Positions 47,832 through 64,000 of a stretch of 64,000 nucleotides of DNA are shown here, piece after piece (position 1 is the first letter of the stretch; every line of letters starts with the position of its first letter). The position numbers and the translations under genes are program-made. The stretch covers positions 63,649 to 127,648 of the IMG/VR virus record IMGVR_UViG_3300027973_002292, one strand, 5' to 3'. The DNA comes from a virus. The notes beneath the pieces are model-generated. The model was not told the origin of the DNA and searched no databases. It saw nothing but the letters and a program-made list of their open reading frames with translations.

Positions 47832-48137
47832 TTAGAGAACGCCTTCGTCATCTAGAACCTCTTGCTTGGGCTTTGATTGGCCCTGAGAAGCTCCACTCTT
47901 CGCAGGAGCACCCGAAGCGGCTTCTTCAGTTTTCTTTTCGGACAGATAAATCCTGAAATCAGGAGCCTTATCTGTCTTCTTGTCCTTATTGGAGAAGACC
48001 ACTACGTCAATCTTTCCCTCTAGGGATGTTTGCATGTGACCGGTCATGTACTTTTGGCTCTTATCTTTACTTAATTTAAGCCACAAAGCACCGACCTCTC
48101 GGCGAGTCCAGTTACTTTCGTTTTTATTATCGCTCAT
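47832..48137 (-). CDS. DUF736-like small ssDNA-binding-type protein with acidic tail
   Basis: VGALW....KYMTG...N..K..DKAPDFRIY motif and C-terminal LDDEGVL. Confidence 0.65.
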   Translation of the reverse strand: MSDNKNESNWTRREVGALWLKLSKDKSQKYMTGHMQTSLEGKIDVVVFSNKDKKTDKAPDFRIYLSEKKTEEAASGAPAKSGASQGQSKPKQEVLDDEGVL

Positions 48138-48146
48138 TACTTGTAC

Positions 48147-48174
48147 AGTAAGGATTGCAAAACAAAAATGTCAA
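48147..48174 (-). promoter_or_regulatory. Sigma70-type promoter
   Basis: TTGACA(48174-48169)-N16-CTTACT(48152-48147)-N9-ATG(48137). Confidence 0.55.
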
Positions 48175-48776
48175 ACAAAATCACAAGAATTTTTGCTCTC
48201 AACTTTATTTTTCAAAAAAGATCTAGTCTTTTCGTGCAAGTTAATTGCGGTTTGAGTGCTTACTCCAAGTTTTTTTGCTATAGAATTCCAAGTTGCAAGC
48301 TTTTCTTCTCCCGAAAAATAACGAAGCTCATAAACTTTTTTGATTCTTTCGTCCTTAAAAGAAGAGAGCAATGAAAGTAAATAAGAATAAGTGTCGGTAT
48401 TCTTATCTTCAGTAATTAAGATGTCTTTGTTATTAAAGAAGTCGATTTTATTTTCTTCAGCTAACATATACTTCTTGTTAGAATTTATGTAGTTTAAGAA
48501 ATGATATTTAACGCAATTACAGAACCAAGTTGAAAACTTCGTTTTCTGCTCCGCATCGAAAGACTTTAGAGCTTTATAAAGAACAAAGTCTTTTTCGTAT
48601 TTGATATCGTCTTTATTCATGCCAGCCTTAATTAAGGTAGAGCAGTATTTCTGGGCGATTGAGTAGTAGAAGTTATCGTACAGCTTAGAAAGCTGTTCGA
48701 AACTATCGTTGCAGTTGTCTTGCTTAACCTTAGATATAAGATCAAGCTCAGTGTTATCGATTTTTACTTTTTCCAT
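48171..48776 (-). CDS. Phage-encoded sigma70-family RNA polymerase sigma factor
   Basis: Region 2 (LYKALKSFD..QKTKFSTWF) and region 4 HTH (ELRYF....TWNSIAKKLGVSTQTAINLH). Confidence 0.85.
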   Translation of the reverse strand: MEKVKIDNTELDLISKVKQDNCNDSFEQLSKLYDNFYYSIAQKYCSTLIKAGMNKDDIKYEKDFVLYKALKSFDAEQKTKFSTWFCNCVKYHFLNYINSNKKYMLAEENKIDFFNNKDILITEDKNTDTYSYLLSLLSSFKDERIKKVYELRYFSGEEKLATWNSIAKKLGVSTQTAINLHEKTRSFLKNKVESKNSCDFV

Positions 48777-48785
48777 GGTGTTCCT

Positions 48786-48824
48786 TTATTCTTCGGAAAC
48801 AGCCATCGCCTTTGAATTTTCCAT
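48786..48824 (-). other. Short upstream ORF 2, MENSKAMAVSEE
   Basis: ATG 48824 to TAA 48786. In frame with, and 9 nt before, the sigma ATG. Confidence 0.4.
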
Positions 48825-48958
48825 TGAGTTGGTTAAAGAAATAGCAGGTCAACTGAGAGTTTTATTCCTCAGTTTATTTAATCAAATCTCACCTACATCA
48901 GTCATCGCATCTCCGGCTTTAGATAGTCCGTTTAGCTAGTAACTGAGATTTGCTATTT

Positions 48959-49012
48959 CTATAGTTGTTTTGTGGGCGACTTATTTTTTGACACAGCCAT
49001 CGCCTTTTCCAT
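48959..49012 (-). other. Short upstream ORF 1, MEKAMAVSKNKSPTKQL
   Basis: ATG 49012 to TAG 48959. Shares KAMAVS with uORF2. Confidence 0.4.
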
Positions 49013-49206
49013 TTGAGAGGAATAAGTTTCTAGCAGTTTTATACAGTGGCCTTTTGGACGCCGCTTCTCCCGAACAAACGCTGAGATTTCTCTCAACCAC
49101 TGTAGTCTTTTTACGGGCTTGTTGTCTCTTACGAGTTTAAATAAAGATGCTATCTTTAAGTGAGCATGGTTTTGCTCAAGCTACCTCCCACGCAACTATT
49201 CAAAGA

Positions 49207-49234
49207 ACGATGGACCATTTCCCTTTAAAGTCAA
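49207..49234 (-). promoter_or_regulatory. Sigma70-type promoter driving the structured RNA
   Basis: TTGACT(49234-49229)-N16-CATCGT(49212-49207). Predicted start ~49200 coincides with the 5' strand of the outer helix. Confidence 0.65.
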
Positions 49235-49235
49235 A

Positions 49236-49643
49236 CTAATTCTTAAGATTTTCTTCCGAAACTTTAGACGCAATAAATATCAGATTTTTCAAGTCTTTTT
49301 CCGTGATGTTTTTTGGATCGCATTTATCGGAGTCATTCTTAAGATTTTCGCAGACTTTATTTATTACACTTGCAATTCCAGCCGCAAGAAGATAATTAAT
49401 CTCCAAATCTTGAGAAAACGCTTCCAAGGGTTTAAATAAAACCCAATGAGTTTCATTGTCTACTGTTGCGGACTTTACAATGCCAGACTTTTCCATTTCA
49501 GAAAGAGCACACAGCACTGCTGCCTTATCGTCGTTTTCCTTATCGGTTACTAGAACTATCTTTTTAAAGTCTCTTCTTAAATTTAATACTTGGTTTTCAT
49601 TAAAGAATTCGTTGAGGTTTAAATACGCATCTAAAATAGTCAT
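49236..49643 (-). CDS. Hypothetical protein (possible winged-helix)
   Basis: 135-aa ORF. CATACT lies 7 nt upstream of the ATG. Confidence 0.7.
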   Translation of the reverse strand: MTILDAYLNLNEFFNENQVLNLRRDFKKIVLVTDKENDDKAAVLCALSEMEKSGIVKSATVDNETHWVLFKPLEAFSQDLEINYLLAAGIASVINKVCENLKNDSDKCDPKNITEKDLKNLIFIASKVSEENLKN

Positions 49644-49719
49644 ATATACAAGTATGCCACTTAATAAAAAAAAGCAAACTTTAAATTGACTTTTATATTA
49701 AAATCTAGATAATTCTGTT
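49644..49719. promoter_or_regulatory. Divergent promoter pair
   Basis: (+) TTGACT(49686-49691)-N16-GATAAT-N6-GTG(49720). (-) weak -35 near 49672-49678, CATACT(49656-49651)-N7-ATG(49643). Confidence 0.6.
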
Positions 49720-63500: not shown

Positions 63501-64000
63501 AGAAACAGTTACGCTTGAACCTGAAGATCCTGAGGTTCCGGCAGAGCCAGATGTTCCGCTAGTTCCTGATGAACCGCTTGTACCGGCAGAGCCAGATGTT
63601 CCGCTGGTTCCTGATGAACCGCTTGTACCGGCAGAGCCAGATGTTCCGCTAGTTCCTGATGAACCGCTTGTACCGGCAGAGCCAGATGTTCCGCTGGTTC
63701 CTGATGAACCGCTTGTACCGGCAGAGCCAGATGTTCCGCTGGTTCCTGATGAACCGCTTGTACCAGAAGACCCTGAAGTTCCGGCAGAGCCAGATGTTCC
63801 GCTAGTTCCTGACGAGCCGCTGGTTCCTGACGAACCAGATGATCCGGAAGTTCCGCTAGTACCTGAAGAACCACTTGTACCAGAAGACCCTGAAGTTCCG
63901 GCAGAGCCAGATGTTCCGCTAGTTCCTGACGAGCCGCTGGTTCCTGACGAACCAGATGATCCGGAAGTTCCGCTAGTACCTGAAGAACCACTTGTACCAG
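60501..64000 (-). CDS. Tail fibre-like protein, 5'-truncated by the window end
   Basis: Frame stays open upstream of the track's GTG at 63299 (…GTSGSSGSSVTVSGTTNYLVKF…GTNIGIGTTSP…). Eleven GIGT-type repeats and an N-proximal (G-x-S/A)n tract. Confidence 0.88.
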   Translation of the reverse strand, partial: GTSGSSGTSGTSGSSGSSGTSGSSGTSGTSGSAGTSGSSGTSGSSGTSGTSGSSGSSGTSGSSGTSGTSGSAGTSGSSGTSGSSGTSGTSGSAGTSGSSGTSGTSGSAGTSGSSGTSGTSGSAGTSGSSGTSGTSGSAGTSGSSGTSGTSGSAGTSGSSGSSVTVSGTTNYLVKFNSSSTITNSIVFDNGTNIGIGTTSPSAKIELYNGNFKISDGNRIIFGVSDPQIYGNSGVLTFRTNSADRMYLNADGNLGIGTSSPGGILDVQSSNAGDQLVRTWNTNTAGTGKAILRVVNSGNNAQGTQLQFTDLNYFVGTIASDRTNGMAFYVGQQAAALASERMRIDINGNLGIGTTSPTTKLAVSDGTTIAQVNPSSGVAYFGTVNNYPMALSVNSSEKVRILNDGNVGIGISSPLTKLVVSNGSNENFEFGPGEASLNGGYIEYINRNSGSTRPDFNFYLGGGGGSYKFYTNGSNERMRITSAGNVGIGTTSPGAKLQIIAPDSPGIGILSNNAGQYVYQYIGRTASELEFGIAGASGHFFTGTVAGDAIIKQNSTGKLHLGYGSGAPSITINSSNNVGIGTISPGAKFEVKGIDDATITAIFQSTAGGNAAYNGGIQLGNAASSQNSKIYHDSSGDNTLTFVSSYGSGTGNKFIFAPGGTERVRFQQNGNVGIGRTSPQQKLHIAGTNARLAISNDSDNNWAEIGNDGSSGQNTLEFFTGSSVTSAMSITNANNVGIGTTSPATKLDVYGAVSVRGTNVISTGADIFGGLSYDIYGNIRVLRSTSAQADGMYIGYGGAGGPLRFFSNSGTTEFMTIATSGNVGIGTTNPVYRLQLGNLTSTSTATPEILSLGGTYSSAAGSNPKLRVWTDGTYSMGLGVSGDQLDYILGRSNYSHVFYADGSQLMVIKGTGNVGIGTTSPAYKLEVNGNFAAGGTSTIGTTYPQLTLNGTANQHAYLMVNRTNYEGGIQFQTSGTSKWWMYMPSGSDATLRFYTNQNSVGDLLNLTNTGNVGVGTTSPAAKLDVVGNIQTEGLLGKLYTTGGATIDTGITADTFTVLEVVGSANPNSAGAGYRDPIHIFIYNGIGWNGSAVTQYIYSNQLAPLAREVYTSGSSLSANVIDVVWLTGSTESDSCPTGSASSYQVRLKISNFNVNTSSFSVRIIKRS
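63519..64000 (-). repeat. Coding tandem repeat (Gly-Thr/Ser-Ser)n with 9-, 45- and 117-nt periodicities
   Basis: Five 45-nt units starting at 63538, 63583, 63628, 63673 and 63718. 117-nt units start at 63757, 63874 and 63991 (partial). Confidence 0.95.

Follow-up and report, generated by a model that had tools for sequence, protein, structure and literature searches.

The leader of a viral sigma-70-family gene carries a short duplicated motif that, judged by sequence comparison, is a lineage-specific nucleotide (RNA) motif changing in concert in both of its copies, and not a coding sequence. The gene lies in the IMG/VR virus record IMGVR_UViG_3300027973_002292, and the window analysed here is the second half of that 127,648-base record (64,000 nucleotides (nt), positions 63,649 to 127,648), with the leader read on the minus strand. 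The leader lies in the 459-nt gap (48777-49235, -) between an open reading frame (ORF) of 135 amino acids (aa; 49236-49643) and the 201-aa sigma gene. As the initial annotation had reported, an exact 15-mer, AAAGGCGATGGCTGT, stands there twice together with its flanks, at 49007-48993 (copy 1, hereafter T1) and at 48813-48799 (copy 2, T2), 194 nt apart from start to start. That annotation took the copies for twin KAMAVS leader peptides, translated from upstream ORFs (uORFs) that would relay ribosomes to the sigma start, and named a tandem RNA motif as its third alternative; comparison of homologous leaders spoke against the peptides and for the tandem motif, which is conserved and co-evolves in both copies, while binding of a ligand or protein is a separate rival considered below. 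We give an even chance to the reading that T2 is able to replace T1 in pairing and that the two form a strand-exchange switch governing the sigma operon.

Twin motif across phage lineages

Of 5000 mononucleotide shuffles of the gap, 1 produced an exact direct repeat of at least 15 nt, and the fuller repeat pair comprises 18 nt at 94% identity, 15 nt of those being exact. The 5' flank of copy 1 reads CTCAAATGGAAAA (49017-49005) and that of copy 2 CTCAATGGAAAA (48828-48817), with 6 additional bases between GGAAAA and AAAGG compared with copy 1. Screening the 127,648-base record for the 10-mer core AAGGCGATGG, we found 0-mismatch matches solely at the two motif sites and 3 further matches with 1 mismatch, the reversed-pattern control giving 9+3. 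The sequence CTCAANGGAAAA with up to 1 mismatch occurs in the window at chance level (4 found vs 3.2 expected). As the motif is confined to the leader within the 127.6-kb record, a regulon or late-promoter reading was rejected.

Homologues of the sigma protein at E ≤1e-3 numbered 193. Relatives of the sigma gene were drawn from 5 IMG/VR loci, 40 metagenome loci (36 with enough upstream DNA; L014, L028, L048 and L050 had too little and were left out) and 80 further IMG/VR loci. The leader signature was carried by 38 of the 41 loci examined, which together with the window gave the 29 distinct leaders of the main family, to which counts refer unless stated otherwise. Three loci without the simple promoter-plus-hairpin signature (L036, L038, L043) were read separately from this set, four matches (L141, L143, L146, L149) were chance matches in coding DNA and L157 was too short.

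The core AAGG-C-R-AUGG occurs twice in 29/29 leaders, and copies 1 and 2 have nearly the same column profile. When each of 36 distinct leaders was searched for its longest exact direct repeat at a spacing of 150-260 nt, that repeat fell on the T1/T2 positions every time, 191-210 nt apart and 8-18 nt long; it was unmatched by any of 200 shuffles in 24 of them, and in L036, L038 and L043 it measures 8-9 nt and is not significant alone. The repeat itself differs between lineages. It reads AAAGGCGATGGCTGT, AAGGCGATGGTAG, AAGGCGATGGTGGAA, AAGGCAATGGTGG, AAAGGCAAATGGTGGA or AAAGGTGATGGTGG, in L148 AAAGGCTGACAGTCAA, and in L160 (the 48.1-kb record behind L145) AAAAGACTAGTGGTC, which has exactly 2 exact matches in that record, 197 nt apart. 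Locus L136, with a sigma protein 35% identical and a homologous leader, carries another exact repeat, GGAAGGAAGAAGTTAAA, in both of the corresponding positions, and L156 has this repeat with one more A.

A tree computed from the other columns of the leader, with those of the motif left out, places several changes in both copies on the same branches, among them G to A (GGCG to GGCA) and C/U at the fifth-from-last position. An A was inserted in both copies of L024, L027 and L031, and in L042 both copies changed from GGCG to GGUG (C to U), together with CUCAA to AUCAA and AAAA to AAA. The difference between GGCUG and GGUAG/GGUGG (UGGUGG/UGGUAG) likewise affects both copies alike. The same holds for two further strands of the leader, S1 and S2, in both of which CUGCUA becomes CUACUA in two separate clades and AUGCUA in L045, L049 and L051. 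A third, degenerate T-like element inside domain 2 of the leader varies freely, without co-variation with the twin (GCAAGGA, GCGAAGA, GCGACGA and GCGCUGA in other leaders). Copy 2 itself reads GCGAUGACUG in L045, L049 and L051.

The alignment of leaders bears directly on the proposed peptides. The gap is more conserved than the flanking coding DNA and carries indels that are not multiples of three. In the window the two short ORFs do exist, with a 6-nt difference that keeps the frame, and uORF1 ends, as described, at the 3' edge of the helix that closes domain 1. The AUGs at 49012 and 48824 are nevertheless present in only 3/29 distinct leaders (window, L001, L012), the others reading CAAA-GGAAAAGG or CAAGGAAAAG instead, and on this alignment uORF1 is an ORF here solely through lineage-specific gain of an AUG. 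For uORF2, the overlap of its UAA with a Shine-Dalgarno (SD)-like sequence and its frame relation to sigma hold in the window and are already lost in L001 (sigma 91% identical), where a 1-nt indel abolishes both. The homologous leaders, to which the initial annotation had itself tied the fate of the peptide, have thus lost the AUGs and the frames, and translation of KAMAVS peptides from 49012 and 48824 is hardly credible in spite of the two frame-keeping ORFs of the window.

A second AUG lies inside the core, in both copies of 29/29 main-family leaders. The ORFs that it opens have 4-34 codons at copy 1 and, in 26 leaders, 2-31 codons at copy 2, where they are fused in frame to sigma in the remaining L045, L049 and L051. 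All three frames occur, and, counted from the sigma AUG, the stops end between -44 and +43, or the ORF runs into sigma. The twin lacks any AUG in L136/L156 and, by reading of the repeats, in L148 and L160; the inner AUG is also missing, by reading, from copy 2 of L038 and copy 1 of L043. Across the 29 leaders and the divergent lineages, neither start codon, peptide, regulatory codons nor stop position, the features of a leader-peptide attenuator, is conserved.

Structured leader RNA and its partner strands

The gap folds with a minimum free energy (MFE) z-score of -4.26, and 0/100 shuffles were equally stable. For the 29 leaders, RNAalifold predicted 80 pairs, 42 of them with compensatory (both-sided) changes, so that the leader has a conserved fold backed by covariation, as looked for in riboswitch-type RNAs. 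These pairs include several hairpins and the long-range domain-1 closing helix P1 (~49199-49187 with 48976-48961), which shows compensatory changes; hairpin loops read by eye are GAAA, GGGA and GUAA. Searching Rfam 15, we found no family at the gathering threshold in the 64-kb window, and at E ≤10 the region 48600-49400 gave 4 matches of 12-18 bits vs cut-offs of 40-197. Literature searches, including four sequence blocks of the leader, returned no description of this RNA in the portions of the sources available to us. Between S1 and copy 1, a small hairpin is predicted (pairs 242-244 with 254-256, probability ~0.6), reading CCC/GGG in L045 and L051 vs CC/GG elsewhere. A terminator scan also flags a conserved GAAA-loop hairpin, GUUGAGAGAAAUCUCAGC followed by GUUUGUUCGG, within domain 1 (49080-49097, -); since its stem covaries in the 29 leaders, a structural role is more likely for it than termination.

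The leader is preceded by TTGACT, invariant in 29/29 aligned leaders and followed at 16-17 nt by an otherwise variable hexamer xAxxxT (by reading). A consensus promoter scan of the window called 0 promoter-like sites; the same scan calls TTGACA-17-TATTAT at the equivalent place in L136. These sequences would fit a leader promoter at 49207-49234, with a probable start near 49200 at the 5' strand of P1. The leader is partly covered by contigs from four RNA libraries (four studies), some of which extend into it from the end of the upstream gene (48929-49545); this is weak evidence for transcription of the leader, as DNA carry-over is possible. The bridging contigs cross the putative promoter and include the segment TTGACTTT, which RNAalifold pairs with copy 2; read-through RNA may therefore contain the -35 segment. 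This pairing of copy 2 with the promoter -35 (UUGACUUU) was set aside, the segment being invariant as a promoter element and lying upstream of the probable start. No contig of the four RNA-library runs joins one motif copy to the other, a weak negative that concerns contigs only and says nothing of uncovered parts. The single joint in these contigs, from 49041 to 49105 (one contig, side 29), reflects a stretch that has been replaced in a relative.

T1 is predicted to pair with S1 and T2 with S2, so that the partner strands are likewise a twin; across leaders S2 reads CUGCUA-UUK-CUU. Mean ensemble pairing probabilities over the 29 leaders are ~0.4-0.45 for S1:T1, ~0.45-0.49 for S2:T2 and ~0.1 for T1:S2. 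In the alignment, the two parts of S1:T1 are paired in 85.5% and 100% of cells, respectively (slid controls 36-60%), S2:T2 in 87.6%, and the local helices S1:T1 and S2:T2 jointly in 88.8% vs 36-60% when slid; T1:S2 is paired in 90.2% vs 32-60%. In several of the pairs counted, 3 'other' cells stem from a 1-nt insertion misaligned in L024, L027 and L031, and these loci were also excluded from the forced-fold energies below. One S:T position runs through G-C, G-U and A-U; six leaders, belonging to two clades, have the A in S1 as well as in S2, each with U opposite.

The S1:T1 module of the window has an MFE of -11.2 kcal/mol (z -2.56). Its outer helix, CUU:AAG step and inner hairpin recur with different sequences in L148, L160 and L136, and double-sided S1:T1 differences between lineages (e.g. 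C-G vs U-A, A-U vs G-C) can be read from the folds. Structural alignment of this module across the divergent lineages failed on the T side, so that these compensations come from individual folds, with no pair count. Comparison and folding models together show T1 as the predicted 3' strand of a conserved helix with S1 in domain 1. When 16 loci were scanned for duplexes with a third complementary strand, no site came up consistently apart from the S2 region, in 6 of them. Other candidate contacts were dropped: pairing of AUGG with the AAACCA loop of the GAGCA/UGCUC hairpin, and readings of the internal loop as an 11-nt-receptor-like element or a k-turn, amounted by eye to 3-5 bp or were unconserved, and pairing with the GCC of AAGCCCGU came to 3 bp.

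Table 1. Features of the sigma leader and their coordinates in the window (all on the minus strand).
Feature	Position	Strand	Remarks
Putative leader promoter	49207-49234	-	TTGACT (49234-49229), 16 nt, CATCGT (49212-49207)
Structured leader RNA, ~430 nt, two domains	48777-49200	-	Predicted from folding and covariation
S1, CUGCUA-GAAA-CUU	49024-49036	-	5' partner of T1; invariant, just upstream of copy 1
Small hairpin, UUCC / UCUCAAAU / GGAA	49007-49022	-	Between S1 and copy 1; holds CUCAA loop and uORF1 AUG
T1, motif copy 1, AAAGGCGAUGGCUGU	48993-49007	-	3' strand of predicted S1:T1 helix within domain 1
uORF1, MEKAMAVSKNKSPTKQL	48959-49012	-	ATG 49012-49010 to TAG 48961-48959
Third, degenerate T-like element, GCGAUGACUGA	48898-48908	-	Inside domain 2; preceded by AGCUAAAC, which resembles S1/S2
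S2, CUGCUA-UUU-CUU	48836-48847	-	Near-copy of S1 at 3' edge of domain 2; complementary to T1 and T2 alike
5' flank of copy 2, CUCAAUGGAAAA	48817-48828	-	Contains uORF2 AUG; most homologues read CUCAAGGAAAAG
uORF2, MENSKAMAVSEE	48786-48824	-	ATG 48824-48822 to TAA 48788-48786
T2, motif copy 2, AAAGGCGAUGGCUGU	48799-48813	-	Final conserved RNA element; 22 nt 5' of sigma AUG
UUUCC (48799-48795) and SD-like AAAGGAA (48787-48781)	48781-48799	-	UUUCC could pair with SD or with GGAAAA 48822-48817
Sigma-70-family gene	48171-48776	-	201 aa; starts ATGGAAAAA / AUGGAAAA; preceded by AAAGGAA at 48787-48781

Candidate strand exchange and competing explanations

Interchangeable pairing is inferred because the identity of T1 and T2 (that of S1 and S2 less so) survives the drift of sequence between lineages. 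In the proposed scheme, a host-type promoter would transcribe an RNA of ~430 nt at the head of the sigma operon, and T2, an exact copy of T1 behind the near-copy S2 of S1, could pair with S1 or S2 instead of T1. This would give a four-segment, attenuator-like exchange between S1:T1 plus S2:T2 and T1:S2 and/or S1:T2, coupling the fold of the large RNA to a downstream output, the sigma ribosome site in the window phage and a terminator in L136; the effect on access to the SD is a step that we infer. Forced folds of 26 leaders place the two pairing states within a few kcal/mol of each other in many of them, the local state (S1:T1 plus S2:T2) coinciding with the MFE in 7/26 and T1:S2 in 2/26. For the window, forced T1:S2 reaches -103.7 vs -100.8 kcal/mol for the local state (MFE -108.4), and T1:S2 beats the local state in the window's group.

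What follows T2 differs between lineages, and because T2 stays equal to T1 while the downstream sequence differs, we regard T2 as the 3' end of the conserved RNA and not as part of a variable platform. In the window, the UUUCC that follows T2 may pair with the SD or with GGAAAA, a 5-bp possibility; L004 and L049 have UUUUCC/GGAAAA vs UUUCC/GGAAA elsewhere in groups A and B. Other groups have an extra hairpin 3' of T2, and in groups C-I a terminator or an SD-sequestering helix is not evident. Between T2 and the sigma ATG, L136 carries a complementary CUUCUUCUU and a tool-called intrinsic terminator (GCGTTCTGCGAACGC and TAATTTTTTA, 1462-1486), and its T2 can pair either upstream, with S2, or with the downstream CUUCUUCUU. 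In L148 (1281-1385) a tRNA-Gly(GCC) gene stands 14 nt 3' of T2; next come a P-loop kinase-like gene, an ORF of 111 aa and a sigma gene with 45% identity. Processing by RNase P could free the L148 RNA as a separate molecule, since the RNA ends with T2 just before the tRNA gene. The leader of L160 heads a kinase-like gene similar to that of L148.

Several results weigh against the exchange of strands. Within the main family no strict double-sided S:T change was found, and most of the columns, being invariant, are uninformative. For the local helices, 35/500 shuffles reach the paired percentage and 117/500 the covariation score, with similar figures for T1:S2. The S2:T2 module is unremarkable (z -0.03 in the window, at -7.3 kcal/mol, +0.63 in L148 and -0.39 in L160), the MFE fold of L160 pairs T2 with another segment, and the GCUAU of S2 also complements an invariant AUAGC (48956-48952), a possible closure of domain 2 that would leave T2 unpaired. 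As the cross helices T1:S2 and S1:T2 cross P1, they need either P1 opening or a pseudoknot. In L029, as in L045, L049 and L051, a G-to-A change in T2 disrupts a central C-G pair, and in L156, by reading, S1 has lost 2 pairs to T while T1 equals T2. With these points counted, the exchange keeps the even weight given above; the fuller proposal, that a new class of ~430-nt phage RNA senses cell state or a phage product and, through a conformational switch with T1 and T2 as its interchangeable strands, sets sigma-operon expression via translation in some lineages and via termination or antitermination in others, is a tentative one, which we hold to be somewhat less probable than its negation.

The main rival is that both copies with their CUCAA-GGAAAA flanks bind one trans factor, either an RNA-binding protein of phage or host origin, which may be a dimer, or the 30S ribosomal subunit, drawn by SD-like purine runs to standby or decoy sites, with co-evolution keeping the copies alike. 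Concerted change of the copies is equally expected here, T2 seems weakly paired, and all versions of the motif are purine-rich and SD-like (AAGG, AAGGA, GGAGGAAGG) in a window where 6/45 genes have an SD-like sequence; moreover, the true ribosome-binding site of sigma in L030 and L046 reads AUCAAGGAAAAAGUUUAUG, resembling the CUCAAGGAAAAGUUAU flank. However, RNA-RNA pairing readily tolerates a near-complete turnover of sequence such as that between L136 and the window, which a protein or the invariant tail of 16S rRNA could follow only with difficulty. The motif occurs nowhere else in the genome and hence is no regulon operator, T1 is predicted to pair with S1 in four lineages, and the conserved neighbours had no match to an RNA-binding family in Pfam and PHROG searches. 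We consider a trans factor unlikely, if the most serious of the competitors.

Improbable, in our view, is that the inner AUG of each copy opens a short uORF whose translation itself, and not its peptide, opens the structure and couples ribosomes to the sigma start. The AUG stands in both copies throughout the main family, AAGGA lies 7 nt upstream of it in copy 1, and the ORF from copy 2 stops no more than ~45 nt from the sigma AUG or, in L045, L049 and L051, continues in the sigma frame. Yet in copy 2 no more than 2-3 nt separate the nearest AAGG from the AUG, neither the length (2-34 codons) nor the frame nor the stop of the ORFs is conserved, flanking non-AUG positions are equally conserved, the AUG is missing from the divergent twins listed above (L136/L156, L148, L160, L038 copy 2, L043 copy 1), and a tRNA gene follows T2 in L148. 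More remote still is a feature acting at the DNA level, be it two operators for a DNA-binding protein or direct repeats promoting a 194-bp deletion: the direct repeats, exact over 15-18 bp and constantly spaced by ~200 bp, would suit it, but they are not palindromic, lie ~190 and ~390 nt downstream of the putative promoter and are joined by no contig in the four RNA-library runs (contigs only), and it leaves both the complementarity of T to S1/S2 and the compensatory S1:T1 changes unexplained.

Genomic setting and relation to known leader RNAs

The sigma gene matches Pfam Sigma70_r2 (E 7.5e-5, 22.9 bits, slightly below the 24-bit cut-off) and PHROG 351 'RNA polymerase sigma factor' (E 5.8e-10). 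Its start ATGGAAAAA and the AAAGGAA before it, both described in the initial annotation, were confirmed on reading the sequence. An SD-like tetramer at -18 to -4 was found in 6/45 non-overlapping ATG-started ORFs of at least 100 aa, sigma being among the six, which agrees with the earlier remark that the majority of genes here have no SD and makes the sigma SD unusual in the window. Several genes, e.g. the 135-aa ORF upstream of the leader, have a CATACT-like hexamer ~7 nt 5' of their ATG (49644-49670, -). The scarcity of SD sequences and these hexamers suggest leaderless mRNAs.

On the 3' side of sigma, a 101-aa ORF is found both in the window (47832-48137, -) and in the distant L136 (2142-2447); that of the window has a weak match to Pfam DUF736 (E 4.6e-5). 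If these two ORFs are related, sigma would have a conserved neighbour and partner here. In loci L085-L135 (e.g. L087, L094, upstream of 1501), sigma homologues of 35-44% identity lie directly 3' of a P-loop kinase-like gene, and the leader signature was not found within 900 nt upstream of the sigma homologue. In these phages the leader may sit further upstream, since it precedes such a kinase gene in L160 and L148. A blastn search of 48100-49700 against a phage GenBank collection gave no match.

In trp-type leader attenuators, four segments pair as 1:2, 2:3 and 3:4. Like these, the leader described here lies between a (putative) promoter and a gene, and it has repeated look-alike strands with a common partner that could form mutually exclusive helices, a terminator in L136 and a possible SD-sequestering UUUCC:GGAA in the window. 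Unlike them, it has no conserved peptide or regulatory codons, its segments are split by large covarying domains of ~200 nt each, and its strands are exact copies over 10-18 nt that are specific to the lineage. With riboswitches it shares a conserved covarying domain upstream of a gene and one strand with two possible pairings, whereas it has no Rfam riboswitch match and its platform varies by lineage, with a tRNA gene in L148. At ~430 nt, the leader is far above the usual sizes of riboswitch aptamers, and the genes downstream of it, sigma being regulatory, hold no metabolic clue to a ligand.

Two further leads concern the motif itself. CAAGGA or AAGGAUG in its flank recalls the GGA sites of CsrA/RsmA, although the GGA of copy 1 lies in a predicted stem and not in a loop; AUGG(C/U) resembles the UGGN of the T-box UGGN-NCCA pairing, although there is no Rfam T-box match. 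Against both leads, the motif is wholly different in L136, L148 and L160. In being large, ornate and found in uncultured lake phage contigs, the leader resembles GOLLD, ROOL, HEARO, OLE and raiA RNAs; unlike GOLLD/ROOL-type RNAs, it has no match to their Rfam models and holds a fixed position behind a putative promoter and ahead of the sigma operon. In the part of it available to us, a cryo-electron microscopy preprint reports that GOLLD and others form RNA-only complexes (10.1101/2024.12.08.627333). By analogy, exchangeable identical strands could equally serve intermolecular pairing.

The fate of the proposed peptides is a caution that short ORFs in conserved leaders can arise as by-products of RNA motifs. 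Phage sigma factors time the switch of the host RNA polymerase to phage genes, and to our knowledge little is understood of how uncultured aquatic phages gate the expression of these factors. In the present phage this role seems to fall to a large RNA for which we found no Rfam match and, in the literature accessible to us, no description, and whose strands evolve in lock-step across lineages. The lineage-specific exact repeat ~200 nt apart is a simple signature for finding further members, and T1, T2, S1 and S2 offer a concrete, mutable handle on the mechanism of the RNA. If the strand-exchange reading is true, the identity of the two strands would be a built-in means to keep both folds near-isoenergetic.

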